From positions 7,715 to 71,714 of the forward strand of contig JAGFCB010000014.1 of NCBI GenBank assembly GCA_022394775.1: a DNA stretch of 64,000 nt, in the 5' to 3' direction. Of the stretch, positions 2,309 to 40,944 are shown one piece after another. The notes beneath the pieces were generated by a model. It had not been told where the DNA came from. It saw only the letters and a list, made by a program, of their open reading frames with translations, and did no database searches. Numbering within the stretch: position 1 is the first letter of the stretch; each line of letters opens with the position of its first letter. The translations under genes were made by a program, and so were the position numbers. The DNA comes from Candidatus Poribacteria bacterium. GTDB lineage: Bacteria; Poribacteria; WGA-4E; WGA-3G.

Positions 2309-2326
2309 GTAAAACTTATGAAAACC

Positions 2327-2355: not shown

Positions 2356-2436
2356 ATTTAAGGGAATATCTTCGTTAGGGCGTAACTCGCAAGCCCGTAT
2401 ATGTTAATTGTGCGACTAACCATGAAAGGAAAATAG

Positions 2437-2790: not shown

Positions 2791-2924
2791 TGCGCGCGAT
2801 AGAGCCATTTAGTTCCCTGTTGACGAGACTGTAGTTAAGACTGAATGGCTCCGATAACACGGAGCCATACCCTTCGTTCCTACGCGAATTTTTGAGAGAA
2901 ACCAAGATACGGAAAAGGAAATTT

Positions 2925-4079
2925 ATGGCAAATCAGAACCTCCCAACGTTTACTGTTGATGCTGGCTTCCATGACCGAGACGGATGTCCGGTCAGTGTCA
3001 GTGTTGACCATCCCGACATTAGCCAACTTCACGATCATGCCGTCACATTAACAGATACGGCATCTAATAATACCATCTCAGCACAATGCTTCGCTGACGA
3101 GGATGGCGGCACAACCTTAAATTGGATACTCGATGGACTCGCCGCTGGTGAATCGCGTTCCTATACCCTTTCAGAAGGAGGCGTTGCTGGCGAATCAGGC
3201 GTTCAGCTAAACGAAGAAGCCGAAACTATCGCCGTCACGCTCAATGACCGACACTTTACAACATTTCGCTATGCTAAAACACAATTCCGTCCCTATTTTT
3301 TCCCTGTCCTCGGTCCCGATGGACGCGAAGTAACGCGTGGTGAAACAAGCGAGGTCTCGAAAGACCACGTGCATCACCGTTCCCTCTACGTCGCCTATGG
3401 CGAGGTTAATGACGTGGATCTATGGGGTGAAGGCAGCAATTCCGGAAGAGTTGTGCATCAAAACTTCACACAGAAACAAGGGGGGGCTGTCGTCGGTCGG
3501 ATTTATACACAAAATAATTGGGAGACGCAAGCTGGTGATGTCTTAATGGCAGACAAGCAGAACTTCCGAATCTATAACCTCCCCGAAGACGCTGCGCTTA
3601 TCGACTTAGATCTCAGTTTTATTGCCTCAACTGGCGACGTTCATTTCGGAGATACCAAAGAAGGCGGTATCATGTCAATCCGTGTCCATCCCTCAATGAA
3701 CGCTTCAGATGGCGGAAAGATAGAGAACGCTTTCGGTGGAATCAATGAGGCTGAAACTTGGGGGAAACGGGCAAACTGGTGTGATTATTCGGGTGTAGTT
3801 GATGGAACACCTGTTGGTCTCGCTGTATTCGATCATATCGTCAATCCACGCTATCCGACATATTGGCACGTCCGTAACTACGGGTTAATGGGAAGCAACA
3901 TCTTCGGCGGCGGCACTTTTGAAAAAGACCCTGCTAAAGACGGTTCCTATACACTCAAGCAGGGTGAAGAGATGCACTTCCGGTTCCGTGTCCTGATCCA
4001 TGCAGGCGATGCCACTGTTGGAAAGGTATCACAGAAATACCACGATTTCATCAATCCGCCTGCTGTTGAGGTTTCCTGA
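2925..4079 (+). CDS. Hypothetical protein, possibly PmoA-like (DUF6807) family
   Basis: The ATG at 2925 follows RBS AAAAGGAAA; the ORF-track start at 2892 is a TTG. Contains a DHVHHRSLY motif. This family is commonly adjacent to Gfo/Idh/MocA oxidoreductases, but the family assignment is from memory only. Confidence 0.4.
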   Translation: MANQNLPTFTVDAGFHDRDGCPVSVSVDHPDISQLHDHAVTLTDTASNNTISAQCFADEDGGTTLNWILDGLAAGESRSYTLSEGGVAGESGVQLNEEAETIAVTLNDRHFTTFRYAKTQFRPYFFPVLGPDGREVTRGETSEVSKDHVHHRSLYVAYGEVNDVDLWGEGSNSGRVVHQNFTQKQGGAVVGRIYTQNNWETQAGDVLMADKQNFRIYNLPEDAALIDLDLSFIASTGDVHFGDTKEGGIMSIRVHPSMNASDGGKIENAFGGINEAETWGKRANWCDYSGVVDGTPVGLAVFDHIVNPRYPTYWHVRNYGLMGSNIFGGGTFEKDPAKDGSYTLKQGEEMHFRFRVLIHAGDATVGKVSQKYHDFINPPAVEVS

Positions 4080-4113
4080 TCGTAAGCGCATACCAAATCA
4101 AGGAGATTCACGA

Positions 4114-5181
4114 ATGCCTATCCCAACGATTCATGTGGGATGTACTCATTTCGCGCACGGCCGTCTACAAGCACAGATCAACTCACACGGGTTAGAACCT
4201 GTCGCCTGTGTAGACATCGATCTTGAAGCCGCACGGGAAGGGGTAGCATCAATAGATGGTGCCCCTGAAGGCTTGGCGGAACGTATCTATACCACCATAA
4301 CCGAGGCGAAAGAGAAACACGACGCACAGGCTTGCCTTATCTATGCCTCCACAACCGTTCACGCCAAGTTAATCGTCGAAAGCCTGAACCTCGGTATGCA
4401 TACCCTCTGTGTCAAACCGATCGCGACAACACAGGCAGAATTCCACGACATTATTCGGGCACATAAAGCGAATCCGGGTTTAATGCTCGTGCAAGGGCAG
4501 AACAAACGCTGGAACCCAGCCGCCGCAAAAATGCGTGAATGGCTCCGCGAAGATGGTGGTATCGGTGAAATGTTAGCCGGTGAATGTCGATTCTGGATCC
4601 GACAAAATCTATATACCGGCCCCGATTCCCGACAACCGGACGCTTATGTGGATGGGCTCTTTTTCCATGCGGGCTGCAGCCATCAACTCGATCAACTTGT
4701 TGCTGCGAAGGGGCTCCCTAAATACGTTACAGCGCATGTCCATAACCGTCGAGATCCTGAACTTGGGCAAATTGATGCTTGGGGAACCGCCGGTGGCAAC
4801 GCACTCATGGAATACGCAAACGGCGCACCTTTCTCTTATGCCGGAACGCGGGCAGGACATACCGGACCCTTCGGGTGGAGTGGCAGCTGGAGTTTTCACG
4901 GTGAAGATGGGGACCTCCGACGAGACGCGGGACATCTCCAGCTTTTCCAACTCGGCGAAACCATTGAAGATTTAAACCTCCAAGATCTACACGCAGGACT
5001 CATAGAGGACGATCGACTCCAATTCGATGCCTTCGCGCAAGCGATCGCTAACGGCACCGATCGAGACTGGGTGCAGGACACGACCCTCGGTACATGGATA
5101 CTGATGGAAGCCTGTAACGAATCCGCGAGAACACACACCCGCGTTGATGTCGAAGCGTTCGCTAAGAAGATGCTTGCTTAA
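4114..5181 (+). CDS. Gfo/Idh/MocA family oxidoreductase
   Basis: The ATG at 4114 follows RBS AAGGAG. Motif HAKLIVESLNLGMHTLCVKP matches the family's H...AL.AGKHVLCEKP. The 4000 start in the ORF track would overlap the previous gene. Confidence 0.7.
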   Translation: MPIPTIHVGCTHFAHGRLQAQINSHGLEPVACVDIDLEAAREGVASIDGAPEGLAERIYTTITEAKEKHDAQACLIYASTTVHAKLIVESLNLGMHTLCVKPIATTQAEFHDIIRAHKANPGLMLVQGQNKRWNPAAAKMREWLREDGGIGEMLAGECRFWIRQNLYTGPDSRQPDAYVDGLFFHAGCSHQLDQLVAAKGLPKYVTAHVHNRRDPELGQIDAWGTAGGNALMEYANGAPFSYAGTRAGHTGPFGWSGSWSFHGEDGDLRRDAGHLQLFQLGETIEDLNLQDLHAGLIEDDRLQFDAFAQAIANGTDRDWVQDTTLGTWILMEACNESARTHTRVDVEAFAKKMLA

Positions 5182-6457
5182 ATCCTGCCGGAGGTTTCAA
5201 ATAAGATTTTTTGCCTTAATTTTTGTTGCCGTGCTTAGTACAACAATACTCATTGGGTGTGAAAGGCAACTTATACCACCGATAGATCCGACGGATCCAT
5301 CGCAAACAGCCTCACAATTGGCACAAAAAGCACTGTCAGACCTTGCGGACACCGCTGCTAAACGTGGATTTGTTGATCTTGCTAACGCTGCAAATGAAGT
5401 CGCAGAAGTCCTTACAGTAGAACAGGAACAAGAAACAACAGGAATAGCATTCTTGAAACTTTATCAGGAAGCATACACTTTACAAGATGCATTTGTTTTA
5501 GCAAGCTGCGGGATAACATTGGATGGGTTTTCTATGGTGTCCATGCGTGCAGCAGAGATATACATAACAGATCCATACTTAACAGAATTAGCTATGGAAC
5601 CGAGTGACAGGGAACAGGTATTGGAAAACCTTGCGCAAGAAGCATTGAATGCAGGAACGATATTGCGGCAGTTTCCTGCAGAGAACGCTTTTATTCCCTT
5701 TGCTTTCGGGTACAAGCCGTCCAGCTATCTTCCTTCAGGCACTGGGATAGTATACTTTCAGTCGTGCAACAACGAAATACTCATAAATTATGACGAAACA
5801 ATTCGGCTAGTGTTTATAACGCGGGCAGCTGTAGTTGAGTTTCTGACTCTCAAAGGATACGCGATGGTGCAAGAGGAATTATCATTTACTAATTATAAGT
5901 TTATAGATTTAAATAATTATGAGTTTATAGACTTAAATGCGGATGTTAATCCATATTCTATTAGGGAAGAATTACTCTCTATCCCCGGTGTTGCGAGAAT
6001 AAGTATCTGTGGGGATGAATACATTCCCGGACCTCCTGTCACAGTAGAAGAACCGACCTTCGATGCACAACCATTTTTTATTATCGTAGACCGGATAAGG
6101 GCAAGATACAATGAAGCTTGGTGTCAAGGCAACTTTGACATAATAGACAGTATCTTAATTGAAGAAAGCAGGGTGGATTTCTTTAATTATTCCTTCGTCC
6201 GCAACCTTGCAGATATCTATGCAGAAGAAATTCCGGAGGCTGCAGAACGTATCCGGACAAATGGTTTTTCCCTTCACAGTATAGCAGTGGCGTTTCTTTA
6301 TATCTATTCTCGGCATTCAGAGAAAAGTCATGAAGATATTACTGAACTCTTCCGACAATCCATCAGAGATGGATATGTGACTATAGAGCATTTTAGAGGT
6401 GGAACAATTTTAAATAATCTACACATTGAGGCACCAAGCATCCCAATCATTCAGTGA
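5144..6457 (+). CDS. Hypothetical lipoprotein with an internal tandem peptide repeat
   Basis: N-terminal signal with lipobox: RRFQIRFFALIFVAVLSTTILIGC. Repeat NYKFIDLN/NYEFIDLN. Markedly AT-rich relative to its neighbours. The true start is uncertain because the annotated ATG overlaps the previous gene. Confidence 0.5.
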   Translation: MMSKRSLRRCLLKSCRRFQIRFFALIFVAVLSTTILIGCERQLIPPIDPTDPSQTASQLAQKALSDLADTAAKRGFVDLANAANEVAEVLTVEQEQETTGIAFLKLYQEAYTLQDAFVLASCGITLDGFSMVSMRAAEIYITDPYLTELAMEPSDREQVLENLAQEALNAGTILRQFPAENAFIPFAFGYKPSSYLPSGTGIVYFQSCNNEILINYDETIRLVFITRAAVVEFLTLKGYAMVQEELSFTNYKFIDLNNYEFIDLNADVNPYSIREELLSIPGVARISICGDEYIPGPPVTVEEPTFDAQPFFIIVDRIRARYNEAWCQGNFDIIDSILIEESRVDFFNYSFVRNLADIYAEEIPEAAERIRTNGFSLHSIAVAFLYIYSRHSEKSHEDITELFRQSIRDGYVTIEHFRGGTILNNLHIEAPSIPIIQ

Positions 6458-6472
6458 ATAATGGAGGCTAAA

Positions 6473-8101
6473 ATGCAAACACCACACGGCTCAGCGTTTC
6501 GTCCATCTGTGATGGGTAGGAACGGGATGGTTACTTCTGGACACGTCCTCGCTTCGCAGGCAGGCATCCAGACAATGATGGCAGGAGGGAACGCCGTTGA
6601 TGCGGCTATCGCCACTGCTGCAGCACTCGGTATGGTTGAACCTGCTGGCTCTGGGGTCGGTGGCGATGGCTTTATCCTTATCTATTGGGCGGAAACCGGG
6701 CAGGTCGAGGCAGTAAATGGGACTGGACCGGCACCTCGCGCCGCAACTCGGGAAACCTATCTCAAGGACGGTGGAATCCCGATGAAAGGCATACGGAGTG
6801 TTTCTGTACCAGGAATCGTTGACGCATGGCTCCTCGCACATGAACGCTATGGGGCACTCAAATTAGAAGATGTTTTCGCGCCTGCAATTTCGCTCTGCGA
6901 AGAGGGGTTTCCTGTCAGCCACAGGCTCGCTGGTGGACTTAGAGGTGAAAACCCACGTTTCGCCGCCGAACCAGACAGCCGCGCTATCTTTACAAACGAT
7001 GGTGAACCTATCCCCGCCGGTCAGTTCATCGCCAACCCGAATCTCGGCACAACACTCCGGAAGATCGCAAAACACGGCAGAGATGTGTTCTACAAGGGTG
7101 AAATCGCTAAGGCTATCGGTGAATTCAGCCGTGCCTACGATGGACTCCTAACCGCTGAAGATCTTGCTGATTTCCACGCACACTGGGCTGAACCGATCCA
7201 TGTCAATTACCGCGGATACGAAGTCTACGAGATGCCGCCTAATTCGAGCGGGCATATCTTGCTTCAAGAATTGAATATGGTTGAGTTATTCGATTTGCAA
7301 GCCTTAGGATGCAATACCGCTGAAAGCGTGCATCTGATGGTTGAAGCGAAAAAACTCGCCTTCGCTGACCGTGAAAAATATATGGCAGACCCAGAATGGG
7401 TGGATGTACCTATAGAAGGCATGTTATCCAAATCTTACGCCGCCGAACAAGCAGACCGTATCGACTTAGACAAGGCTGCTTTTGATGTTCCGGCTGGTGG
7501 ACCAGAAGCACACGAAGATACAACCTGTTTCTGTACCGCGGACCGGGCAGGGAATCTCGTTTGTATACTACAGAGTATCCAATCCGGGTTCGGCTCCAGT
7601 TTGGTTGCAGGAGACACAGGGGTCCTTTTAAACAATCGTATGACCTATTGGCATCTCGAAGAAGAACACCCGAACTGCTTAATGCCGGGCAAACGCGTCC
7701 GACACACCATGAACCCTGTCATCGTCACGAAAGATGGTCAACCCTTCTTAGCTTGTGGCACACCCGGGGCAGATACACAGGTACAGACAAACCTGCAGCT
7801 CGTTACGCATATTGTTGATTTCGGAATGACACCGCAGGAAGCTGTCTCTGCACCGCGTTGGCGCAGCCTACAGAACCCCATGGAATCGACGATTCCGCAT
7901 ACCTGCTCTAATGACCTTCAGTTAGAAAACCGATTCTCTTCGGATACCAAGGACGGATTGGCAGAGAGAGGGCATGAACTCCAAATTTCTGGTGATTGGG
8001 GCGGTCCCGGAAGTGCTCAGGCTATTATGGTTCATCCGGAATCTGGTGCACTCATCGGTGGTTCCGATCCAAGAACAGACGGGTACGCTGTCACTTTTTA
8101 G
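6473..8101 (+). CDS. ggt: Gamma-glutamyltransferase
   Basis: Small-subunit N-terminal nucleophile region HEDTTCFCTADRAGN, GDGFILIY, and an overall Ggt-like layout. The ATG at 6473 follows AATGGAGG. Confidence 0.85.
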   Translation: MQTPHGSAFRPSVMGRNGMVTSGHVLASQAGIQTMMAGGNAVDAAIATAAALGMVEPAGSGVGGDGFILIYWAETGQVEAVNGTGPAPRAATRETYLKDGGIPMKGIRSVSVPGIVDAWLLAHERYGALKLEDVFAPAISLCEEGFPVSHRLAGGLRGENPRFAAEPDSRAIFTNDGEPIPAGQFIANPNLGTTLRKIAKHGRDVFYKGEIAKAIGEFSRAYDGLLTAEDLADFHAHWAEPIHVNYRGYEVYEMPPNSSGHILLQELNMVELFDLQALGCNTAESVHLMVEAKKLAFADREKYMADPEWVDVPIEGMLSKSYAAEQADRIDLDKAAFDVPAGGPEAHEDTTCFCTADRAGNLVCILQSIQSGFGSSLVAGDTGVLLNNRMTYWHLEEEHPNCLMPGKRVRHTMNPVIVTKDGQPFLACGTPGADTQVQTNLQLVTHIVDFGMTPQEAVSAPRWRSLQNPMESTIPHTCSNDLQLENRFSSDTKDGLAERGHELQISGDWGGPGSAQAIMVHPESGALIGGSDPRTDGYAVTF

Positions 8102-8180
8102 AGGAATTGTTTCATTAGGATTTACGCAAACTCCTACTACCACACTATCATTATTGGGCTAAGACCCACGGAGGCTAATT

Positions 8181-9035
8181 GTGAATAGCACCACTGTGAG
8201 AATCATGGCGTACTCGGTTTTTATGATAACCTTTTGTCTTGTAGCACCACAAACTTGGGGGCGTGAGGCTGTTCTTCTTGAAGAAGATTTTGAAGGCGTG
8301 AAACTCGAAGCAAGTATAATGGAACAGGTTAAAGATAAAGACGTTTGGTCAGGCACACCGCCTGAAGGTTGGGAAATTACAAACGAGAACCCTAAAGATC
8401 TCGGTATGCCTGAGTGGAGAACTTGGGCGATTGTTGATCTTGAGTGGTGGACACGAACAGCCGAAGACCAGCGGCGTAGTGAGTTCACCGGAGTCCACAA
8501 TGACGGCAAGGGCAAAGGGAACGGAGCCGTTTCTGATCCTGATGAGTGGGACGATTGGGAGGGAAATGGGGATCCTGATGCCCAGAGTCGTTGGAACGGT
8601 CACTTAATTACGCCACCCATTAAAATCAAAGGCGCAGCAGCAAAATCGCTCGTCTTAACATTGGATTCGAGCTGGCGACCTGAAGATACCCAAAATGGTG
8701 AGATCACAGTGAGTTTCGACGGCGATAAGGAAGAACGAATTCTATTCTTCAAGAGCGTCGGGATTGACGCAGGCGCGCATACCCTTGTTACGATTCCTAC
8801 CCTTAAACTAAAAGAGGAAAAAATAAACGATGGGGAACAGATAAACGAAACATTAGAAATCCCGATCGACAACCCCGCAGGTGCAGCGGAGATGACTATT
8901 AGTTTCGGTGTCGTTGACGCACAGAATGATTGGTGGTGGGCGATAGATAATATAAAACTTATAAGCACTGCCTTTGATGTAGAACCGAGAGATAAATTAG
9001 CAGTGAAATGGGGAGAAATGAAGTCCTTACAATAA
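8181..9035 (+). CDS. Hypothetical secreted protein
   Basis: Signal peptide MAYSVFMITFCLVAPQTWG; acidic, D/W-rich segments. Has a GTG start with GGAGG 7 nt upstream. Confidence 0.5.
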   Translation: MNSTTVRIMAYSVFMITFCLVAPQTWGREAVLLEEDFEGVKLEASIMEQVKDKDVWSGTPPEGWEITNENPKDLGMPEWRTWAIVDLEWWTRTAEDQRRSEFTGVHNDGKGKGNGAVSDPDEWDDWEGNGDPDAQSRWNGHLITPPIKIKGAAAKSLVLTLDSSWRPEDTQNGEITVSFDGDKEERILFFKSVGIDAGAHTLVTIPTLKLKEEKINDGEQINETLEIPIDNPAGAAEMTISFGVVDAQNDWWWAIDNIKLISTAFDVEPRDKLAVKWGEMKSLQ

Positions 9036-9152
9036 CCCCCCTCTATCAAATTGTGAGCAACGCAATATCACTTACAATTTCGCAAATATACGCTAAAAGA
9101 GTGATGCGCTTCCCTCAAGTGTATCGCTCTTTTATGCATTGGAGAAAAATTT

Positions 9153-10205
9153 ATGAAAATATTGGTCACAGGTGGCACGGGACGCATCGGGTCGAACCTC
9201 GTTAAAAAATTACTGGAAAAAGGACACGATATCCGAAGTTTCGTTTATCCGGGTGATGTCAACCGTGTTGGAAGATGGGACGGAACTGAACGCGTTGAGA
9301 CCGTCCTCGGCGACTTGCGCGAATATGAAGACGTTAAAAAAGCCGTTGAAGGTGTTGATGCTATCTATCATATCGCCGCTGCTTTCGGGGGGCCCTTTGA
9401 TAACCGCCAGTACTTGGAGATTAATGGTATGGGGACGCTCAACATTTTGGAGGCTGTCCGCGAATCCAATCCGAACCTTCACCGTCTCGTTTATGCCTGT
9501 ACCGAAGCAATCTATTGGGAACTTACTGAGAAGGGCAGATTTTTCGATAAACCGATCACGGAAGATATGGTTGCTAAATACCATCACATGCCTTATTTCC
9601 TTACCAAATGGATCGGTGAGGAATTGTGCATGACCTATCACCACCAATACGGCGTACCTTCCACTGTTTTCCGATTTACTACCGTTATTGAACCGAGCGA
9701 ATTCCTCAATGAAGATGATTTGCCGAAACTGTTTGTCTTTAGTAATATTTACAACCGATACAGCAATTATAAAGGCGATGATCCTGCTGAGTTAGAAACC
9801 GCTGAGACTGTCAAACGTCTCTGGGATGGACAAGAAAAATTTATACTCAAACGCAACCCTAACGGGCGACCTTATAAAGAACATTTCACTGATGTTCGCG
9901 ATATTGTGCAAGGATTGGTTTCCGGGATTGAGAAGGATGCCGCTATCGGCGAAGAATTCACACTCGGAGGGAACGGTGTTTTCAAACACGAAGAGGTTAT
10001 GCCATATCTATCCGAACGCTACCAGATGGATTTTGTTGATGTCCAACTCCCGCAACCTCTCTATTTTGAATTTGATTTGAGCAAAATCAAAACACTATTG
10101 GGCTTTGAACCACAACACGATTTAGCGAGTATCCTTGATGCCGCTGAAGCGATGCGCCGTGGTGAAGATGTCGGCATTATTCCAACAGGCGTTCGGTGGA
10201 ACTAA
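9153..10205 (+). CDS. NAD-dependent epimerase/dehydratase (SDR family)
   Basis: N-terminal Rossmann motif MKILVTGGTGRIGSNLV. RBS GGAGAAAAA. Confidence 0.85.
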   Translation: MKILVTGGTGRIGSNLVKKLLEKGHDIRSFVYPGDVNRVGRWDGTERVETVLGDLREYEDVKKAVEGVDAIYHIAAAFGGPFDNRQYLEINGMGTLNILEAVRESNPNLHRLVYACTEAIYWELTEKGRFFDKPITEDMVAKYHHMPYFLTKWIGEELCMTYHHQYGVPSTVFRFTTVIEPSEFLNEDDLPKLFVFSNIYNRYSNYKGDDPAELETAETVKRLWDGQEKFILKRNPNGRPYKEHFTDVRDIVQGLVSGIEKDAAIGEEFTLGGNGVFKHEEVMPYLSERYQMDFVDVQLPQPLYFEFDLSKIKTLLGFEPQHDLASILDAAEAMRRGEDVGIIPTGVRWN

Positions 10206-12027: not shown

Positions 12028-12750
12028 ATGAACAGACGTAATCTGTTTATTGCTATCTGCAGTGTCACCCTCGGCATCGCAGCTCTTGCGATGTCGCAGA
12101 CCTATTTTGAAGATAATTTTGATGATCCAAAGGAATCTGAGAAGAAGTGGGTCGCCCTCTTTGGAGACTGGGAACTCAAAGGTGATGAATACCATCAACT
12201 CCAAAATTCACCCAACTGCATGAGTGTTGTTGCTGATGAATTCTGGGATGACAAATGGAATGATTATACTTTTGAGGTAAGAGGGAGTAAAATCAGTGGT
12301 GCTGAAGGCTTTTTAATTATGTTCCGATGCCAAGGCTTGATGCAAGCCCGCGGTCAAGCACTCGAAGACCATCCGCCACGTATGGAGAAACTTAAACCTT
12401 CACTGGAGTACTGGTGGAACCTCGGCGGTTGGGGCAACACGCGCTCACAGGTTGAATCGTGGGGTGGTAAAGGTGGTGCCAATAGCAATCACACCATTGA
12501 AGATGATGAGTGGTATAACATCAAGATTGTCAATGAACCGGGCAGCTACACGCTCTTCCTCAACGACGAAAAAGTCGCCAAGGTAGATGATAATACCGAA
12601 GACGGTGTCGGCAGAGTCGGTCTCGCAACTTGGAGCACTGTCGCAAAGTATGACGATGTCATCGTTTACGGACCCGATGGACCCTCGTTACCGGTTGATG
12701 CGAAAAGCAAGCTCGCAACAACTTGGGCATATCTCAAATCCACAAAATAG
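12028..12750 (+). CDS. LamG-like jellyroll / DUF1080 (3-keto-disaccharide hydrolase-like) domain protein, secreted
   Basis: Signal peptide; FEDNFDD...W....GDWELKGDE; C-terminal GRVGLATWSTVAKYDDVIVYG is typical of DUF1080. Confidence 0.5.
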   Translation: MNRRNLFIAICSVTLGIAALAMSQTYFEDNFDDPKESEKKWVALFGDWELKGDEYHQLQNSPNCMSVVADEFWDDKWNDYTFEVRGSKISGAEGFLIMFRCQGLMQARGQALEDHPPRMEKLKPSLEYWWNLGGWGNTRSQVESWGGKGGANSNHTIEDDEWYNIKIVNEPGSYTLFLNDEKVAKVDDNTEDGVGRVGLATWSTVAKYDDVIVYGPDGPSLPVDAKSKLATTWAYLKSTK

Positions 12751-12810
12751 ATAGGACTCTCGTATCTCCTCTTAAAGTCCCCCTGATAAGGGGGATTTAG
12801 GGGGTTAAAG
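12750..12810. repeat. Degenerate copy of the MITE/REP-like core CCTCTTAAAGTCCCCCTGATAAGGGGGATTTAGGGGGTTAAAG
   Basis: Begins at the stop codon TAG-ATAGGACT, as the copy at 29028 does. A 9-bp stem hairpin TAGCGCGAG..CTCGCGCTA follows at 12817-12846. Confidence 0.6.
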
Positions 12811-12850: not shown

Positions 12851-14035
12851 ATGCAAAAATTTCAAATGCAAAACTACTTTTTACCCCCACGTATTGAATT
12901 AGGCGACGGTGCCATCCAAAACTTAGGTGAACATGTCAAAACGTTTGAAGGCAAAAAACCGTTCTTGGTGAGCGATGCCGGTGTTATCAACGCCGGTATT
13001 CTTGCCAGAGCGATAGATGCTTTAGACACAAGTGGTTTACCCCATGCGATATATTCAGAGATCGAACCGAATCCCACAGATACCAGCATCACACACGGGG
13101 TTGAAGCTTATAAGTCTGAAGCGTGCGATGTCGTCATCGCTGTAGGTGGGGGCAGCGTTATGGATGCTGCCAAAGCCATCCGGCTTTTGACAACCCATGA
13201 GCCGCCCTTAGAGCCTTATTACGCGGATGTCGGTGGTGCTGAAAGGATTCGAGATGATATGCCGCCCTTAATCTGCGTCCCTACAACCGCAGGCACTGGC
13301 AGCGAAGTCTCACAAGGATCGATCATTACAGATACATCGTTCAACACGACCAACAGATGGCGGAAACGTGCGATCGTTACCCCGCTCAATATGTCGAATA
13401 TAGCACTCCTTGATCCGGGTATAACGGTCGGCATGCCGACCGCACTCACTGCTGCAACCGGTATGGATGCCATTACGCACGGGATTGAGGCGTATGTCGC
13501 AACGAAGTATCACCCTATTGCCGAAGGGGTCGCATTGCAGGCTCTCAGAATTTTGAGTGCGAACATCCAAAAAGTGTATCACAACGGGGAGGACGTGGCT
13601 GCGCGAGGAGAGATGCTACTCGGATCGTGTATGGCAGCGTTCGCGTTCCAGAAAGGACTCGGTGCTGTTCACTCGCTGGCGCATCAACTTTCCACGGACG
13701 CACCGATCCCACACGGCGTAGCAAACGCAATTTTGCTCCCACCTGTCATGGAATTTAACTTTTCCCATGCAACCGAGAAATACGCCGAAATCGCGCGCGC
13801 CTTGGGGATAGATACCAACGGGATGGATAGCAGTGAAGCAGGACGTGCCGCTATTGATAAAATTAGGGCGTTCAACACAGAATTAAATATGCCTGCCGGG
13901 CTTGGAGAGGCTGGCTTAGACCGAAAAAAGATTCCAAAACTCGGCGCAGATGCAATGCTTGATCACTGCCACAAATTCAACCCAAGAGCCTGCACGGAAG
14001 CAGATATGATAGCGTTATTTGAGGCGGCCTTTTAG
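12851..14035 (+). CDS. Iron-containing alcohol dehydrogenase
   Basis: Fe-ADH signature GGGSVMDAAKA and the family's His-rich metal site region. Confidence 0.9.
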   Translation: MQKFQMQNYFLPPRIELGDGAIQNLGEHVKTFEGKKPFLVSDAGVINAGILARAIDALDTSGLPHAIYSEIEPNPTDTSITHGVEAYKSEACDVVIAVGGGSVMDAAKAIRLLTTHEPPLEPYYADVGGAERIRDDMPPLICVPTTAGTGSEVSQGSIITDTSFNTTNRWRKRAIVTPLNMSNIALLDPGITVGMPTALTAATGMDAITHGIEAYVATKYHPIAEGVALQALRILSANIQKVYHNGEDVAARGEMLLGSCMAAFAFQKGLGAVHSLAHQLSTDAPIPHGVANAILLPPVMEFNFSHATEKYAEIARALGIDTNGMDSSEAGRAAIDKIRAFNTELNMPAGLGEAGLDRKKIPKLGADAMLDHCHKFNPRACTEADMIALFEAAF

Positions 14036-14102
14036 TGTTGCTTGCGAACTAAAACTTGCTATTCAAAAGAGTGTTGCTTGCGAACTAAAACTTGCTATTC
14101 AA
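14031..14102. repeat. 36-bp direct tandem repeat, 2 copies (GTGTTGCTTGCGAACTAAAACTTGCTATTCAAAAGA)
   Basis: Near-perfect duplication lying between the convergent stop codons of the Fe-ADH and PQQ/WD40 genes. Confidence 0.8.
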
Positions 14103-16422
14103 AAGCAGGAAGATCAACCGGTGCAATCCACGCCTGCGTCAACGCTGGTTTATACGCATTATCGCGCAGATAGTCTGATGTCTGCCACAAACAGAGATGT
14201 TTACCATCTGGCATCCAGACAACAGATGTCAGTTTCATAGCAGTGCGGGCGATAGGCACCTTCTTACCGCTTTCAAGGTCATAAACCCAGACTTTCCAAC
14301 GAATCCCTTGACAATCCTCGCGTTCCAAATACGCTAACTGTCTCCCTGTCGGTGACCAAGCAGGCGACGTGTGTTTCAATATCTGGCTCTGCGTCAGTGT
14401 AGGCGTTGACTCCGATATATGCAACTGCTTATCCATCCGCTGACCTGGACGATTACTACCGGATAAAACGTAAGCCAGTTGTGTGCTATCTGCTGACCAA
14501 TTCAACTGCTGAACCTTTTGATGTTGGGTTTGGATCTCCTTTATGCGTTCACCCTCTATATTTTGGATGCGGACACCGACATATTTCGAGTTATTCACAC
14601 CAAAAGCGACGCGGGTGCCATCAGGTGCCCAAGTTGGGGCAGGGAGATAGGTGTAATTGCGTTGTCGGCGTTCAATCGGCACACGCGCGATTGCACTTAA
14701 ATCGCTGCCATCGCTATTAATACGGTAGATAACATCCATCCCCCCAGCTTGAGAGGCGTCGTATCTTCTAAATACCAAGCGATTTGACGTAGGCGACCAA
14801 GCAGGTCCCTCGCCGAGAACCAACTGTTTAACGCGTCCGAATTGCCAATCCACTGTATAGATATACCGTTCGCCGCCTTCATCAACCTCAAATGCCAAAA
14901 GTCTGCTATCCAGCGACCAAGAGATATGCGGATTGTAAAACTGTCCAGTGTAAAGCCTGCGTGCTTGTTGCCCTTCCCGATCCATAATCCACAGTTCATC
15001 CGCACGCCAGTACCGACTCCTTAAGTCATTCCTTTTTAGAAATGCGATCAGTTTGCCGTCAGGACTCCAGCGCGGGAATTCCGCACCTTCAAGCAATTGC
15101 ATCCTACGTGGCAGGGCAGTCGAGAGACCATGTCCACCACTAAAAGTCGTGTTGAACATGACACCGTCAGTATCTTCAAATTCCCCAAGAGCGAACTTGT
15201 CCATCCATCCCCGGACACCGTTCGGGAGTTCAACCTCATACCCGTCGAATGCCATACGCGCATTTGGCGTTGATTCGTCCGAAGCTTGCACGATCGGCAA
15301 ACGTACCCCGTCGTTGAGGTTTAACAACACAGATGTGCCTTCTTTATTTGCGTAAACCGGTGCAGCATCATGCACCACAATTCCCGTTTGCCGCGAGTCT
15401 GACGCACCCTCCGTACTGCCGGAGCTTGTAACCTCGCCTGCATTTGTGAACGCATAGACCCTGCCGTCACCCGATGCAGCGTAAAGGATACCATCAGAAA
15501 TCGCTGGTGCGGCTTCCACAAAACCACCGAGTTGATGCGCCCAAGTCTGTGTTTTTGATGAAGCGTCAAACGCGTGCAGATGTCCATCGCGCGCCCCAAT
15601 ATAGACGCTGCCATTTGCGATGACAGGATAACTCTCACTTCCTGCTGTCTGAGCCCTCCACATCTTCGCATTGTGTTCTGGGAAAACGGGACGGAATACA
15701 CCTTTCGCACATCCGTATTCGACCCCATTAATATGAATTGTCCGCTCGCGCACCGATTCAACTGTCCCTGTCCTCGCGTTCAACACGTAGATTTTTGAAG
15801 GGAACACGCCAATATAAACTTTGTTATCCGCAACGACCGGTGGCGCGTCCATCCAATTTTTTGATTTGAACTCCCAGAGTTTCTCACCTGTTTTTGTATC
15901 TAAGGCATAGACCTTGTTATTCCGGGCATTGAAATAGACCCGATCTCCAAGCACAGCAGCAGAATAGCGAATAGCATCTCCCGCATCAAAAACCCATTTA
16001 ATCCCCCACTGCTTGGCATCGAGGGCGTACAATTTGCCATCAGTTGAACCAATATATAGAATGCCATTCGCGATGACAGGGGAGGCGTAGAGCGGTCCAC
16101 CCGTTTTGAATTTCCACAGCAATGCCAACGGTGGCGCGAGGCTTTGATCAGGGCTCATTCCCGAAAAGCCTAAATCGTACATGAAGATGTGCCAATCTTC
16201 AGCACGCGGCGGTGTGACGGATTCCATCACTCCGGAGGGGACGGGCTGCTGACCGCCTGACCGCTGTGCTTGTTGTTTCTGTTGTGAGTCACATCCCCAC
16301 ACAAGCAGTACCATGAATAGGATTATCAACTTTTTAGCGCAGCTCGCGGGTTTCCAAAATTTATTGTACAAGTGTCTGTTCCAGAGATACACATTAACCC
16401 TTTCGTTCAGTGCCTCGATCAA
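14095..16422 (-). CDS. PQQ-like beta-propeller plus TolB-like WD40 repeat lipoprotein
   Basis: N-terminal KKLIILFMVLLVWGC; repeated G.LYA...G.LYA.D PQQ-type blades; C-terminal WSPDGK/WAPDGT/WSPTGR TolB-type repeats. Confidence 0.75.
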   Translation of the reverse strand: MIEALNERVNVYLWNRHLYNKFWKPASCAKKLIILFMVLLVWGCDSQQKQQAQRSGGQQPVPSGVMESVTPPRAEDWHIFMYDLGFSGMSPDQSLAPPLALLWKFKTGGPLYASPVIANGILYIGSTDGKLYALDAKQWGIKWVFDAGDAIRYSAAVLGDRVYFNARNNKVYALDTKTGEKLWEFKSKNWMDAPPVVADNKVYIGVFPSKIYVLNARTGTVESVRERTIHINGVEYGCAKGVFRPVFPEHNAKMWRAQTAGSESYPVIANGSVYIGARDGHLHAFDASSKTQTWAHQLGGFVEAAPAISDGILYAASGDGRVYAFTNAGEVTSSGSTEGASDSRQTGIVVHDAAPVYANKEGTSVLLNLNDGVRLPIVQASDESTPNARMAFDGYEVELPNGVRGWMDKFALGEFEDTDGVMFNTTFSGGHGLSTALPRRMQLLEGAEFPRWSPDGKLIAFLKRNDLRSRYWRADELWIMDREGQQARRLYTGQFYNPHISWSLDSRLLAFEVDEGGERYIYTVDWQFGRVKQLVLGEGPAWSPTSNRLVFRRYDASQAGGMDVIYRINSDGSDLSAIARVPIERRQRNYTYLPAPTWAPDGTRVAFGVNNSKYVGVRIQNIEGERIKEIQTQHQKVQQLNWSADSTQLAYVLSGSNRPGQRMDKQLHISESTPTLTQSQILKHTSPAWSPTGRQLAYLEREDCQGIRWKVWVYDLESGKKVPIARTAMKLTSVVWMPDGKHLCLWQTSDYLRDNAYKPALTQAWIAPVDLPAFE

Positions 16423-18014: not shown

Positions 18015-18164
18015 TTGTTGGTTATTAGTTGTCAGTTATCAGTTAAGAGGTTTCTGATTCATTAACAAAAACTTAGGAACCGTCGGTATTTCAATTGGAT
18101 AACAACCTTTACAAGAAGATTTTGGGGCATCGAAAACCAGACTAATAACTGAAAACTGAAAACT

Positions 18165-19583: not shown

Positions 19584-19649
19584 CGAAAGATCGCAAACTC
19601 GTAATGAAGCAGATCGCTTATGGGCGAGTACGCCGCAAAATGGAGAGCG

Positions 19650-19740
19650 GTTCTACGGAAAGGAACCTCAAGGTTCAAACCCACTTCATCGAACCGCAAG
19701 GAAAATTAAAAAAACGAACCGCAAGGAAATTAAAAAACAA
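19650..19740 (+). promoter_or_regulatory. Conserved 5' leader module: TACGGAAAGG, about 30 nt, then two tandem copies of GAACCGCAAGGAAA(A)TTAAAAAA abutting the hppA start
   Basis: The same module is seen at 38675-38742 (ilvN) and 39288-39378 (ilvC). Confidence 0.6.
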
Positions 19741-19753
19741 AGAGAGGTTTTAA

Positions 19754-22655: not shown

Positions 22656-22658
22656 TAG

Positions 22659-22748
22659 AACTTACGCATCCCCATTGCTGGCGGGGTTTGAAACCCCGCC
22701 AGCAGTGCGTAATACATAGGTTATCGTAGAAAGATGCGTAAGTTCTGG
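22659..22748. repeat. MITE/REP-like element, second core type: degenerate TIRs CTTACGCATCC / GATGCGTAAGTTC around the palindrome CTGGCGGGGTTTGAAACCCCGCCAG
   Basis: Perfect 11-bp stem palindrome at 22677-22701. Same architecture as the element at 61749-61843. Confidence 0.65.
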
Positions 22749-28409: not shown

Positions 28410-29027
28410 ATGGCACATCGCGGTACGTTTATTACATTTGAAGGTGTGGAAGGGGCGGGTAAAACCACACAAGTTCAACGGTTGGCAGCCGCTCTCGGTC
28501 CAGACGTAGTCCTCACCCGTGAACCGGGGGGCACGCCTGTTTCAGAGCGGATCCGCGACATCTTTCTGACATCCGACAGGATAACAACGATGACAGAGTT
28601 GTTGTTGATTGCTGCTGCACGCGCACAACACGTAGACGAGCGTATACGTCCCGCATTGGCAGCAAATCAGATTGTTATCTGTGACAGATTTATTGATGCG
28701 ACCGTGGCGTATCAAGGCTATCGTGGTGGTATTGATCTTGAGATTATCCATCAATTGAATCATATTGCTACGGGCGGTTTGACCCCGGATATCACCTTTA
28801 TCCTTGACCTACCCCCAGAGATCGGTTTGCAACGTCAACAACAAAGCGAGGCACACCGCGACCGTTTGGATAAAGAACCGTTGGAATTCCATCGTAAAGT
28901 TCGTGAGGGATACTTGTCCGTTGTGGAAGCAGAACCGCAGCGCGTTAAACTAATAGACGCAACGCAGTCGCCTGATGCTGTCCACACCGCGATCTTAACC
29001 GAATATCAGGTGCACCTATCAAAATAG
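28410..29027 (+). CDS. tmk: Thymidylate kinase
   Basis: FITFEGVEGAGKTTQ P-loop. RBS AAGAGGAAAA. Confidence 0.9.
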   Translation: MAHRGTFITFEGVEGAGKTTQVQRLAAALGPDVVLTREPGGTPVSERIRDIFLTSDRITTMTELLLIAAARAQHVDERIRPALAANQIVICDRFIDATVAYQGYRGGIDLEIIHQLNHIATGGLTPDITFILDLPPEIGLQRQQQSEAHRDRLDKEPLEFHRKVREGYLSVVEAEPQRVKLIDATQSPDAVHTAILTEYQVHLSK

Positions 29028-29154
29028 ATAGGACTTACGCATTTCCTCTTAAAGTCCCCCTGATAAGGGGCGGTGAATGCCCATAAGGCATTCATACCGT
29101 TGATTCTTTAGGGGGTTTGAAACATTGAAATTACTGCTTTTGCGTAAGTCCTAA
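29028..29154. repeat. MITE/REP-like element with intact TIRs (ATAGGACTTACGCA ... TGCGTAAGTCCTAA) and the core CCCCTGATAAGGGG..TTAGGGGGTT, interrupted by a palindromic insert GTGAATGCCCATAAGGCATTCAT
   Basis: Starts exactly at the tmk stop codon. TIRs at 29028-29041 and 29141-29154. Confidence 0.75.
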
Positions 29155-30440: not shown

Positions 30441-32336
30441 ATGAGCACATTTTACGTCACCACCCCTATCTACTACGTGAATGGCGAACCGCATGCAGGA
30501 CACGCCTATACCACTATCATCGCTGATGTTTTGGCGCGTTATCACCGTATCAAAGGCGATGAGGTGTTCTTCCTGACTGGCGTTGATGAACACGGGGCAA
30601 ACATACATAAAGCCGCTGAGAACGCAGGACTTGCTCCACAAGACTATTGCAATAAAATGGCACCTACGTTTACAAAACTTTGGGAACGGTTGAATATCTC
30701 GCACGACATCTTCATGCGGACAACAAGCGATATGCACAAAAGCGGCGCGGAGAAATTCCTCACCGCCCTCTATGATAGTGGCGATGTCTATAAAGGTTCT
30801 TATGAGGGGCATTATTGCCGACCGTGCGAGCGGTTTGTCCCTGAAAAAGAGTTGACGGACGAAAAGATCTGCCCGATTCATAAATTGCCTTTGGAATGGC
30901 TCGAAGAGGAAAACTACTTCTTTAGACTTTCTAAGTATCAAGATCGCTTACTCACACATTTTCACGAGAATCCCGACTTTGTCTACCCCGCAGCTCGACG
31001 CAATGAACTTTTGAGCGTACTTGATTCCGGATTGGAAGACATAAGCATATCTCGCTCCTCTGTTTCATGGGGAATTTCCTTACCCTTTGATCGCGAGCAT
31101 ATCGTCTATGTCTGGATTGAAGCGTTAATGAACTATATGACAGCACTCGGTTATGAAACCGATGATAAGCAGTACCGTACTTTTTGGCCCGCTGATGTCC
31201 ACATGATGGCAAAGGATATCTCCCGTTTTCACGCGCTGATCTGGCCCGCAATGCTAATGGCTGTTAACTTGCCACTTCCAAAACAGGTTGTTGCGCACGG
31301 TTGGCTGACGAAGGACGGCGAAGCATTGAGCAAAACGCGAGGCATTGCCATTGATATGGACACGGACATTGATACCTACGGATTGGATACATTCCGTTAT
31401 TATCTTCTGCGCGAATTTAGTTTCGGAAACGATGGTGATTATCGTCCTACCCGTTTGCATGCACGCTACAACGCTGATCTCGCGAACGACCTCGGCAATC
31501 TGCTCAATCGCGTCCTCGGTTTACTCAACAAGAACTTTGAGGCAATTCCTCCACCGACAACGCCCGGGGAATTCGACGACGAAATCAAGGAAATGGCACA
31601 GACGACGGTAGATAAATTAGATGCGCATATAAACGCATTCGCGTTTGATGCTGCATTGGAGACTATCTGGGAATTTGTGCGACGCATCAATCGGTATATC
31701 CAACAGACCCAAGTCTGGACGCTCGCGAAGCCAGAGACGAAGCCGAGAATGGGAACGATCCTGTACAATAGTTTAGAAGCACTCCGCGTCATCTCTGTGT
31801 TGATTGCCCCCTTTATTCCGGAAACTGCTCAGAAAATTCAGAAACAGATCGGTTTATCCGAATTTGATACCGCCGCAGAGTGGGGACGCTTACCTGTAGA
31901 TATTGCCGTTAGCAGAGGTGAACCCATCTTCCCGCGGGTTGATACAAAAGATCAGAAACAGGCACGACCTGAAAAAGCAGCGAAGCCGAAGCCGAAGACG
32001 GCAAAGCAAACAACCGACTTAGTCTCCTTCGCGGATTTCCAAAAGTTGGATCTTCGGGTCGCGCGTATTCTCACTGCTGAACCCATTGAAGGTGCGGACC
32101 GACTCCTCAAGTTGCAAGTAGACCTCGGTACTGAGAAACGGCAAGTCGTCGCAGGGATTGCCGAACACTATACCTCTGAAACCCTCGTAGGCAAACAGAT
32201 AATCATCGTCGCGAATCTTGAACCCGCAACTATCCGTGGTGTCGAATCACACGGTATGATTCTCGCAGGCAGCGCGGACGCTGTAGTTTTAGCGACCCTT
32301 GAAACCGAAATGCCCCTCGGCACACAGGTAAGGTAG
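30441..32336 (+). CDS. metG: Methionine--tRNA ligase with C-terminal EMAP/Trbp111-type tRNA-binding domain
   Basis: HIGH region PIYYVNGEPHAGHAY; KMSKS-type ALSKTRG; C-terminal LDLRVARIL...GADRLLKLQVDLG. Confidence 0.95.
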   Translation: MSTFYVTTPIYYVNGEPHAGHAYTTIIADVLARYHRIKGDEVFFLTGVDEHGANIHKAAENAGLAPQDYCNKMAPTFTKLWERLNISHDIFMRTTSDMHKSGAEKFLTALYDSGDVYKGSYEGHYCRPCERFVPEKELTDEKICPIHKLPLEWLEEENYFFRLSKYQDRLLTHFHENPDFVYPAARRNELLSVLDSGLEDISISRSSVSWGISLPFDREHIVYVWIEALMNYMTALGYETDDKQYRTFWPADVHMMAKDISRFHALIWPAMLMAVNLPLPKQVVAHGWLTKDGEALSKTRGIAIDMDTDIDTYGLDTFRYYLLREFSFGNDGDYRPTRLHARYNADLANDLGNLLNRVLGLLNKNFEAIPPPTTPGEFDDEIKEMAQTTVDKLDAHINAFAFDAALETIWEFVRRINRYIQQTQVWTLAKPETKPRMGTILYNSLEALRVISVLIAPFIPETAQKIQKQIGLSEFDTAAEWGRLPVDIAVSRGEPIFPRVDTKDQKQARPEKAAKPKPKTAKQTTDLVSFADFQKLDLRVARILTAEPIEGADRLLKLQVDLGTEKRQVVAGIAEHYTSETLVGKQIIIVANLEPATIRGVESHGMILAGSADAVVLATLETEMPLGTQVR

Positions 32337-32360
32337 TAGGCACACTCCGCGTGCCGTAAC
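32334..32360 (+). repeat. Stop-codon-associated palindromic element TAGTAG-GCACACTCCGCGTGCC-GTAAC
   Basis: Paralogous copies lie at 40945-40974 and 61716-61746, both directly after stop codons. Confidence 0.6.
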
Positions 32361-36301: not shown

Positions 36302-36399
36302 TAAAATGTAAATATAATTTAGCACGCCCTGAAACTTCATAAAACGGGGTGCGTAATTAACATTTAAATAGATTACCAAAAAAGCGTTGAAAGGGAGGA

Positions 36400-36706
36400 G
36401 TAAGTCGTCCGGGCTTGCGAGAGATGGAAACTCACCGGCTGAAAGGTTTCCTCAAGTTCCCTCGACTGAAGGTCGCCCTGGAGCTGCTAATCTGAACAAT
36501 TGTAGGTGCGAGTTTCGCTCGCGACAGGTAGGATTGGTCGGTGTGATGCCCGTTATCGCATCCCAAAGAGTGCTCTTTCTCATTGTAGGCGGGCTTTGTA
36601 AGCCCGATACCTCCAATAAAAATGGGAAGAGAATTGGAGTGGTACCACGGTAAGGCAAGTGTAATGCCCTTCTCGTCTCCATGTTTGGAACGAGAAGGTT
36701 TTTTTA
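36400..36706 (+). ncRNA. T-box riboswitch leader with intrinsic terminator, upstream of ilvB
   Basis: T-box sequence AATTGGAGTGGTACCACGG at 36632-36650 (consensus AAUUAGGGUGGUACCGCG). F-box CCGTTA at 36549-36554. GA-rich GCGAGAGATGG near the 5' end. Terminator CCTTCTCGT..ACGAGAAGG plus T7 at 36668-36705. Confidence 0.75.
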
Positions 36707-38567: not shown

Positions 38568-38674
38568 GATTTTCATCATTAACTGCTTTGGGCACTGCCT
38601 CATTACATTACGCAATCGTTTCTGGTGAAGAATAAACCCTTAACTCAAAAACACAGTCCGTAATGGAATGGAGG

Positions 38675-38742
38675 ACGGATATACGGAAAGGCACGGTGAG
38701 TGCCCAACCCCCCCTGACTTAACCGCAAGGTAAAATTAAAAA
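38675..38742 (+). promoter_or_regulatory. Conserved leader module (ATACGGAAAGG ... AACCGCAAGGTAAAATTAAAAA) abutting the ilvN ATG
   Basis: Same module as at 19650 and 39288. Confidence 0.6.
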
Positions 38743-39243: not shown

Positions 39244-39287
39244 TCTTTTAACGATCCGCAAAGTAAGTCCAAGCATCGCGCCGGGCT

Positions 39288-39378
39288 GGATATACGGAGA
39301 GAACTGTTTTTCCATACAAGGCTCCTGAACGAACCGCAAGGAAATACAAAAAGACGAACCGCAAGGAAATATAAAAAT
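39288..39378 (+). promoter_or_regulatory. Conserved leader module (TATACGGAGAG ... 2x GAACCGCAAGGAAATA(C/T)AAAAA) abutting the ilvC ATG
   Basis: Tandem duplication of the 22-nt unit, as seen upstream of hppA. Confidence 0.6.
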
Positions 39379-40943: not shown

Positions 40944-40944
40944 A

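Follow-up and report, generated by a model that had tools for sequence, protein, structure and literature searches.

A repeated 5' leader with a ribosome-binding-site-like 3' end precedes diverse genes in Candidatus Poribacteria

Upstream of hppA, ilvN and ilvC in a 64,000-nucleotide stretch of a Candidatus Poribacteria contig (GenBank JAGFCB010000014.1, positions 7,715 to 71,714 of the forward strand; hereafter the window), a repeated element about 90–105 nt long was found, oriented with the gene. Related copies precede many unrelated genes in other Poribacteria. The position of the element, its conservation and its predicted accessibility suggest that gene and element are transcribed together and that the 3' module provides the site of translation initiation, a reading to which a probability of about 0.6 is given. 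The roles proposed below for its 5' hairpin and for the spread of its copies draw on the same observations. Few cases are known of repeats that supply a ready-made leader and ribosome-binding site to unrelated genes (Neisseria REP2, Borrelia IR), and their copy number is low. Core metabolic genes, ilvN and ilvC for example, have the present element in front of them, and it is swapped between close relatives.

A preliminary description of the window had noted a bipartite motif at 19650–19740, 38675–38742 and 39288–39378, with a start-proximal unit doubled at hppA and ilvC and single at ilvN, and TACGGA(A/G)AGG about 40 nt upstream. All three loci read as described, and the gene names were borne out by Pfam, which identified hppA as H+-PPase (H+-pyrophosphatase), ilvN as the small subunit of AHAS (acetolactate synthase) and ilvC as KARI (ketol-acid reductoisomerase). 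The gene ilvB lies just 5' of ilvN. A look-up of the exact IlvC protein gave no record. The exact 10-mer AACCGCAAGG occurs five times in the window, always on the + strand and only in these three leaders; for shuffled sequences the mean was 0.20 and the maximum 1. With one mismatch the count (7 against 4.1 expected) was not significant, so that the signal resides in the exact copies. TACGGARAG occurs four times (0.81 expected): at 19654, 38682 and 39293 it stands 38–39 nt 5' of the first unit, and the fourth occurrence, at 43791, is intragenic. Both motifs belong to a single longer element, the start of which lies about 70 nt 5' of the AACCGCAAGG unit; at hppA the distance is about 95 nt, owing to a nested 30-nt piece in the loop of the hairpin.

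The consensus obtained from an alignment of flanks is aaa..cGTAG-CCCG-tAACGAAGTGGA-GGGC-GGATATACGGAAAGG-nACnTnAA-(variable)-AAACCCACCTGACCG-AACCGCAAGGAAAATTAAAAA-(A)-ATG. From 5' to 3' it consists of a head (consensus GTAG), a hairpin, the GGATATACGGAAAGG box, 12–15 variable bases, AAACCCACCTGACCG, the CCGCAAGG core and AAAATTAAAAA. A covariance model built from 68 copies gave 161 matches across 771 kb of Poribacteria loci and three in the window. The latter are the only full copies there (92, 85 and 57 bits; Table 1), the next match having E = 4.3. A further non-significant model match at 48486–48547 (+; 10.3 bits, E = 5.3), which contains ...AATTCACCTAACCGA and runs antisense to the genes around it, may be due to chance or represent a degraded remnant of the element. 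At gathering thresholds, the window matched nothing in Rfam 15 except a T-box; at E ≤ 10 nothing relevant was found over 38560–39400. The T-box leader (36378–36683, +; RF00230, 95.8 bits with a gathering score of 93) lies 5' of ilvB (36891–38567) and heads the ilvB-ilvN-ilvC operon, inside which two copies of the element sit. T-boxes are rarely seen beyond Firmicutes and a few further phyla.

Table 1. Coordinates of the leader repeats, the sister family and the inverted-repeat family (window positions unless a locus label is given; L-numbers are labels for the Poribacteria loci compared)
Feature	Position	Strand	Details
hppA, full leader repeat	19594..19739	+	covariance-model match 19614-19718, 84.8 bits, E = 1.3e-18
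hppA, hairpin	stem CTC 19598-19600 with GAG 19645-19647		loop GTAATGA...AAATGGA, nested 30-nt insert 19608-19637
hppA, box TTCTACGGAAAGG	19651-19663	+	followed by spacer with local GAACC/GGTTC hairpin, then AAACCCACTTCAT
hppA, 3' units together	19690-19739		two 25-nt units, CGAACCGCAAGGAAA-A/T-rich
hppA, 3' unit copy 1	19690..19714	+	CGAACCGCAAGGAAAATTAAAAAAA
hppA, 3' unit copy 2	19715..19739	+	CGAACCGCAAGGAAATTAAAAAACA, tandem duplicate
hppA, own Shine-Dalgarno sequence	19742-19747		GAGAGG; ATG at 19754, 14 nt past the module
ilvB/ilvN junction, full leader repeat	38653..38742	+	covariance-model match 38642-38747, 92.2 bits, E = 1.7e-20
ilvN, leader hairpin	GTCC 38656-38659 / loop 38660-38672 / GGAC 38673-38676		head ACAG; loop GTAATGGAATGGA
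ilvN, box GGATATACGGAAAGG	38677-38691		local hairpin GGCAC..GTGCC 38690-38704, then CAACCCCCCCTGACTT
ilvN, 3' unit, single	38720-38742	+	TAACCGCAAGGTAAAATTAAAAA, flush with ATG at 38743
ilvN/ilvC junction, full leader repeat	39263..39378	+	covariance-model match 39252-39358, 57.3 bits, E = 9.2e-12
ilvC, leader hairpin	AGTCC 39266-39270 / loop / GGGCT 39283-39287		head GTAA; loop AAGCATCGCGCC
ilvC, box GGATATACGGAGAG	39288-39301	+	followed by spacer, then CTCCTGAA
ilvC, 3' unit copy 1	39330..39354	+	CGAACCGCAAGGAAATACAAAAAGA
ilvC, 3' unit copy 2, start-proximal	39355..39378	+	CGAACCGCAAGGAAATATAAAAAT, flush with ATG at 39379; model match 39359-39382
Sister family	L013 3250-3322; L018 7258-7330(-); L022 7833-7905; L023 516-588(-) and 4030-4102(-); L077 2512-2584; L092 301-373; others		
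MITE-like family	447-699; 22658-22745; 29031-29151; 61753-61841; L110 4040-4165		terminal inverted repeat GGACTTACGC (TAGGACTTACGCA / TGCGTAAGTCCTA)

The distribution of the element was examined by scanning 185,579 species genomes, one per species, for the 21-mer pattern AACCGCAAGGWAAWWNWAAAA. At least 119 loci were found. Among the matches listed, 112 loci are titled Candidatus Poribacteria and come from about 38 metagenome-assembled or single-amplified genome assemblies from sponges, a coral and seawater, and three further loci belong to metagenome-assembled genomes titled "uncultured bacterium" that carry the element. The remaining four of those listed, from other phyla, look like chance matches, as they have no flanking similarity. 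Among the matches listed, the motif is almost confined to one phylum and can serve as a sequence marker for Poribacteria DNA in metagenomes. A profile search of about 1 Mb yielded 202 copies, all intergenic, 65 of them without the exact search pattern. These 65 keep the invariant core CCGCAAGG, followed by (A/T)AAAATTAAAAA, as well as the A/T tail and the ATG; in them too, CCGC is as invariant as AAGG. An estimated one copy per 10–20 kb, or a few hundred per genome of 5–6 Mb, is extrapolated from a biased sample and one window and is not a census. The extent of the element, its covarying 5' hairpin, its restriction to one phylum and the invariant CCGC all go beyond the preliminary description. 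Nothing on Poribacteria DNA repeats or on the motif was found in the literature searched.

The element is in register with start codons. Among 150 pattern copies from the matches listed in the scan, the gap between the end of the motif and the start of a long open reading frame (ORF) was –1, 0, +1, +2 and +3 nt in 3, 10, 64, 15 and 3 cases, respectively (95 copies, mode +1), and a stricter recount found 98 copies flush with a start codon (long ORF within –1 to +3 nt). The tie to start codons noted in the preliminary description is upheld, and it is strong; the element usually stops 0–2 nt short of the start codon. The non-flush copies comprised 15 inner copies in tandem arrays of whole elements, 8 inner copies in duplications of the 3' unit of the hppA/ilvC type, and 29 others. 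Several of these 29 are followed by a long open frame from the position expected for the ATG, which is replaced by ATA, ATC or ATT. Examples are found in L088 (+) near 560, in L062 (+) near 4491 and in L081 (–), with the element at 2590–2698. The N-termini of such frames are plausible (a GxGxxG Rossmann start, a P-loop, a signal peptide); they could reflect non-canonical start codons or assembly errors in the A-run.

The element always has the orientation of the gene that follows it. The gene before it runs the same way in 83 of 95 copies; the upstream stop codon lies at a median of 140 nt before the motif, and the element is therefore mostly intercistronic or in a leader. The downstream genes are functionally diverse: 87 of their proteins matched 130 Pfam families, with at most four genes per family. 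A dedicated regulon was rejected for lack of Pfam enrichment.

RNAalifold supported the 5' hairpin alone, the rest of the element being devoid of conserved structure. The stem was paired in 88% of cells, compared with 72% in shuffles and at most 61% in slid controls, and double changes were found in 59 cells compared with 20; none of 500 shuffles reached the observed values. The 84 distinct hairpins with the common loop have 31 stem sequences, the first three pairs being Watson-Crick in 95–98%. The stem has 4–6 bp and the constant 13-nt loop reads G(U/A)AAYGNARUGGA, in which Y and R covary (C..G or U..A), indicating an inner A-U/Y-R helix that closes a GNA triloop. Two further loop types, GCAACAACGGCGC and CAAACAACGTGCC, occur. 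The head is purine-pyrimidine-A-purine: of 68 copies, 20 have GTAG, another 23 have GCAG, GTAA or ATAG, and 61 have A at position 3. Stem mismatches of G-U and A-C types (8 and 3) are too few to decide between RNA and DNA. The folding z-scores of the whole element (–0.6 to +1.2) were no better than those of shuffles, so that it is not a compact structured RNA. A long-range alternative pairing of the 3' arm of the hairpin plus GGAT with ATCC..CCTG was discarded (62.5% paired, 62.8% in shuffles).

The family is a mosaic, as it has alternative loops, modules nested in the loop and a T-rich module. Small hairpin modules nest at a fixed point of the leader-hairpin loop (AGCAGATCGCTTATGGGCGAGTACGCCGCA; also ATTATGCCTTAAATGGCATAATTTGTCTTTGCTTTAC and GTCCCGCAAGCCTCTATAGGCTTGCGC), and the resulting composites recur at unrelated loci of different genomes (L009, L028, L032, L033, L037, L066; L039, L083). 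The 30-nt insert of the hppA copy recurs in L110 at 4194–4223. In some copies, the T-rich module GGTTTTTGCTTGGGTGTTTC stands between the hairpin and the GATATACGG box. The hairpin is rarely seen without the start-proximal tail. As a repeat in its own right, GGTTTTTGCTTGGGTGTTTC(T/C) is widespread, with about 70 sites in the loci (for example in L003, L008, L016, L035, L043 and L106, and at 4230 in L110). It is usually found directly 3' of the G-rich 3' arm of a hairpin, like the tail of a terminator, and sometimes in tandem.

A second, shorter family was found at 17 loci, none of them in the window. It has the arrangement TTAACCGAAAACC-(6-bp stem)-(same loop)-(complementary stem)-CCCAGGAGC-ATAAATTAAAAA-ATG. 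This sister family has in common with the leader repeat the loop G(T/A)AAYGNARTGGA and the A/T tail, but it contains a canonical AGGAG; it is likewise flush with the ATG. Its stem was paired in 95% of cells (71% in shuffles), with 29 double changes compared with 9.4, and no shuffle out of 500 did as well. Since two cassettes have the same loop, a Shine-Dalgarno-like sequence and an A/T tail, and both abut the start codon, it is the arrangement of hairpin, ribosome-binding site and ATG itself that appears to be kept.

If the 3' module is indeed a translation-initiation region, the mRNA would include the element, in many cases between two cistrons, as at ilvB-ilvN-ilvC. The anti-Shine-Dalgarno sequence of 16S rRNA (canonical UCCUU) would pair with AAGGA, with GG at –14/–13, and the A/U-rich unpaired spacer would give access to the ribosome. 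A 16S tail ending in ...CCUCCUUUCU would fit both AAGGA and the upstream GAAAGG as Shine-Dalgarno-like sequences. Partition-function folding of 96 flush copies gave probabilities of being unpaired of 0.65–0.88 at positions –12 to –1, against a background of 0.45. The Shine-Dalgarno-like AAGGA with its A-rich tail, proposed in the preliminary description, stands at a workable distance and next to a stretch predicted to be unpaired. Other genes of the window have GGAG, AGGAGG or AAGGA with A/T-rich spacers of 5–10 nt. The 5' hairpin may act in the RNA, either as a stabilising or processing boundary, which could shield the upstream cistron at its 3' end or the processed downstream transcript at its 5' end, or by binding a protein through its constant loop.

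Several observations weigh against this reading. AAGGA is a weak Shine-Dalgarno sequence, and the GG at –14/–13 is at the long end of the 5–10 nt spacing of GGAG-type sites in other genes of the window. Pairing with the Shine-Dalgarno partner leaves the invariance of the adjacent CCGC unexplained. The CC and GG flanking GCAA have low probabilities of being unpaired (0.33–0.39) because a weak CC[GCAA]GG mini-hairpin is predicted; in about 60% of the ensemble they would be paired around a GCAA tetraloop, which would partly hide the GG. At hppA, the element is not the proximal ribosome-binding site, since a separate GAGAGG lies between it and the ATG. About a dozen copies have no downstream ORF. 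The 3' tail of the organism's 16S rRNA was not present in any sampled locus. Finally, the complete conservation of the core between orthologous copies is inflated, as the copies were found by a motif search. A passing idea was that AACCGCAAGG may be similar to the 5' strand of helix 45 in 16S rRNA (AACCGUAGG in E. coli).

Should the element drive translation, an uncultivated phylum of symbionts would owe a sizeable part of its gene expression to a modular and probably mobile element, start codons could be annotated directly from it, and the hairpin loop and the CCGCAAGG core would be targets for finding a binding factor. A further reading is put forward tentatively and considered unlikely. Poribacteria may possess a system of portable leaders throughout the phylum, in which each genome would have a few hundred genes with a shared cassette. 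A dedicated lineage-specific factor would read two parts of the cassette, and new genes would acquire it by active copying. The recognised parts may be a protein-binding hairpin, with its constant loop G(U/A)AAYGNARUGGA, tandem non-canonical pairs and a GNA triloop, and the Shine-Dalgarno sequence capped by a GNRA tetraloop (CC[GCAA]GG). Such a system would provide a single handle on the translation or mRNA processing of an arbitrary and fast-changing set of genes, and would be a bacterial counterpart of the shared 5' leaders of eukaryotes.

The points left unexplained by a ribosome-binding site, namely the invariance of CCGC, the GCAA tetraloop partly hiding the GG, and the long spacing in the sister family, keep alive a second explanation. 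The element could be the binding platform of a global post-transcriptional regulator, either a lineage-specific RNA-binding protein (CsrA-, S1- or Csp-like, or other) or a small RNA, recognising CCGCAAGG, the hairpin loop, or both. About 5% of the genes would be jointly repressed or activated, and the likeness to a ribosome-binding site would arise because the regulator competes with the ribosome. CCGC is indeed as invariant as AAGG even in the copies found without the pattern. A constant 13-nt loop on covarying stems, common to two otherwise different families, is typical of hairpins recognised by proteins. ACGGA and CAAGGA, about 46 nt apart, resemble CsrA-type sites when set against the consensus of such sites. 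Comparable start-proximal TAACTGA repeats have been read in this way, as far as the abstract of that report goes (PMC4679880). However, the downstream genes have no functional coherence, and housekeeping genes gain or lose the element between relatives that are about 90–95% identical, which would be odd for a regulon. No complementary small RNA was identified, nor was a CsrA or Hfq homolog found in the approximately 1 Mb sampled, a sample too small to be informative. Regulation of this kind is regarded as improbable.

The element is gained, lost, duplicated and replaced quickly between close relatives, and in this it behaves as a portable expression cassette. Six metagenome contigs whose IlvN proteins are 89–95% identical differ at the ilvB-ilvN and ilvN-ilvC junctions in the presence, subtype and copy number of the element. 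In the window both junctions are occupied, with the 3' unit doubled before ilvC. L124 also has an element at both, and the one before ilvC has the hairpin type of the window and a single 3' unit, so that the duplication in the window is recent. In L120, a degenerate tail cgaaccgaaaacttaaaaaaATG is left before ilvN, and there is no element before ilvC (aaaaggaagagactttATG). The element is absent before ilvN in L121/L122, where two full tandem elements with a different hairpin type precede ilvC. It is also absent before ilvN in L123 and L125, where the second junction is not comparable, as no ilvC start lies directly downstream.

A further case is provided by L110, which has about 85% DNA identity with the window and is syntenic with its positions 2326–10057. 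There, two tandem elements are flush with the ATG of the gamma-glutamyltranspeptidase gene, the window ortholog of which (start at 6473) is preceded by aatGGAGGctaaaATG. The same region of the window contains 1.29 kb absent from L110, with an ORF of 437 residues (5144–6457, +) that has no Pfam match; the L110 junction lacking it holds a transposable element of the miniature inverted-repeat kind (MITE) and two leader repeats. Between orthologous genes of different species, the 5' modules often differ and the 3' module is the same (for example in L013, L018 and L119). In 18 orthologous pairs, the AACCGCAAGG core was unchanged and third codon positions were 62% identical. Tandem copies are joined head to tail exactly at ...AAAAA|(G)CCTG..., so that the element is bounded by the hairpin's foot and the A-run. 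At filled and unfilled junctions no clean empty site or target-site duplication could be aligned, the spacers of the relatives being too diverged. The suggestion that the motif is the gene-facing end of a repeated element is upheld by this variation between relatives, and the element is probably mobile.

The same turnover could be that of a selfish, non-autonomous repeat, REP/BIME-like and moved by a Y1/RAYT-type enzyme, or MITE-like, that inserts preferentially into the A-rich stretch just before start codons. Its ribosome-binding-site-like tail would either be tolerated or be needed to keep the inserted repeat from silencing the gene, and the repeat would serve no other function. This would account for the mosaic build, with interchangeable 5' modules and nested mini-insertions in the loop recurring as composites at different loci, for the exact head-to-tail joining of the tandem arrays, for presence, absence and subtype replacement at orthologous junctions, and for the GTAG-like head before a palindrome, as in SMAG/REP (PMC3184786). 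Yet neither terminal inverted repeats nor a recognisable target-site duplication nor an alignable clean empty site was found, the orientation is strictly tied to the downstream gene, inverted REPIN-like pairs are lacking, and the hairpin is seldom separated from its start-proximal tail. Compensating changes in the stem around a fixed loop point to long-term structural selection and not to recent copying, and orthologous sites have kept the core, with synonymous positions close to saturation. A motif search, and tblastn with a RAYT query, detected no ORF resembling a Y1 transposase in about 1 Mb of scattered loci, which is a weak test. Selfish spread without function is accordingly considered quite doubtful.

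Least credible is a signal at the DNA level, in which the repeat would be a promoter or a site for a transcription factor or nucleoid protein placed before many genes, as in the promoter-bearing Neisseria REP2: the GGATATACGG box with its nearly invariant T.TA positions, and the terminator-like T-rich module that follows the hairpin in some variants and would require a new promoter downstream, speak for it, but within or at the three copies of the window a scan for sigma-70 consensus sites predicted no promoter of that type, and no terminator was predicted there, TATACG is without the T that is critical at the end of a –10 hexamer, the T-box-headed ilvBNC operon encloses two of the window copies, 83 of 95 copies follow a co-directional gene, and the register is fixed to the start codon and not to any plausible transcription start.

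Among known systems, the nearest kinds appear to be the REP2 repeats of Neisseria and the IR repeats of Borrelia, with a mosaicism like that of REP/BIME. REP2, which is contact-regulated, and the Borrelia plasmid IR repeats lie just 5' of ORFs, carry a ribosome-binding site, abut or include the ATG, and have stem-loops near the 5' end and no terminal inverted repeats (PMC3184786). Judged by these descriptions, the Poribacteria element resembles them as a repeated 5' leader fused to many genes, with a ribosome-binding-site-like 3' end at the ATG and a 5' stem-loop. It differs in being present across a whole candidate phylum. REP2 is 120–150 bp long with about 26 copies per genome, whereas the Poribacteria element is shorter, with an estimated few hundred. 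REP2 has a promoter and two stem-loops, the Poribacteria element no predicted sigma-70 promoter and one covarying hairpin. REP2 also marks co-regulated contact-induced genes, in contrast to the functionally diverse set found here.

REP/BIME and the SMAG repeats of Stenotrophomonas are imperfect palindromes of short length that number in the hundreds and have, 5' of the stem, a head of the GTAG type; they form modular mosaics and tandem clusters, are transcribed intergenically and affect mRNA stability (PMC3184786). The Poribacteria element is likewise a short palindrome, extragenic, mosaic and of high copy number; its head, which is exactly GTAG in 20 of 68 copies, may be akin to that of REP/SMAG. 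However, the usual place of REPs is a gene's 3' end or the space between two convergent genes; they occur in either orientation or as inverted pairs and have no ribosome-binding site, whereas the Poribacteria hairpin is almost always on a start-proximal tail, in one orientation, with a loop that is conserved while the stems covary. The mycobacterial MIRU elements (40–100 bp) lie inside operons, are oriented with the genes and co-transcribed, are often in tandem and vary in presence between related species (PMC3184786). They are present in about 40–50 copies and contain small ORFs that overlap the flanking genes, leading to translational coupling. The Poribacteria element has no upstream ORF and begins tens of nucleotides past the upstream stop codon. 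MIRU-like coupling was rejected, as the in-frame TGA and TAA of the 3' module have no start codon between them.

The Correia elements of Neisseria and other MITEs are also small, abundant and non-coding, can alter the expression of neighbours and are co-transcribed. They have terminal inverted repeats and target-site duplications and occur in either orientation, none of which is seen in the Poribacteria element. Neither of its ends, GTAGCC... and ...AATTAAAAA, is the inverted copy of the other; lacking both terminal inverted repeats and a target-site duplication, the element is no MITE. The preliminary description had allowed that the motif might simply be the terminus of a MITE family noted in the window, which is probably the family with the terminal inverted repeat TAGGACTTACGCA (Table 1). 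This was dismissed, as the copies of that family lie elsewhere and none is near the three loci.

TAACTGA heptamer repeats of marine Beggiatoaceae, Cyanobacteria and Bacteroidetes are described, in the abstract of the report on them, as lying a few nucleotides 5' of start codons, with no functional pattern downstream and a suggested role in translation (PMC4679880). As described there, they consist of 2–6 copies of a 7-nt unit, with no hairpin or Shine-Dalgarno sequence, in contrast to the complex Poribacteria element. Poribacteria are not listed in that abstract. Separately from the leader repeat, heptamers of the TAACTGA type (TAACTGAAAACTGAAAACT), often after cctctt, were found in the window at 18146–18164 (+) and 18027–18045 (–). 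The + strand set ends exactly at the ATG (18165) of a gene of the Mur ligase family. The Poribacteria loci contain 24 such sets, for example at 2755–2787 in L040, 168–199 in L113 and 1685–1710 in L120.

The genome is unusually rich in small intergenic repeats. Besides the MITE-like family, intergenic units of the form CCCCCTGATAAGGGGG..TTTAGGGGG were found in the window at 436–501, 12743–12809, 29020–29070 and 40403–40499. The hairpin AGTAGTAGGCACRCGCCGYGTGCCGTAA stands just after three genes, at 32330–32359, 40944–40973 and 61715–61744. A 28-nt palindrome, TGCTGGCGGGGTTTGAAACCCCGCCAGC, is present at 22676–22703 and 61794–61821, and a perfect 36-nt tandem duplication occupies positions 14034–14105.

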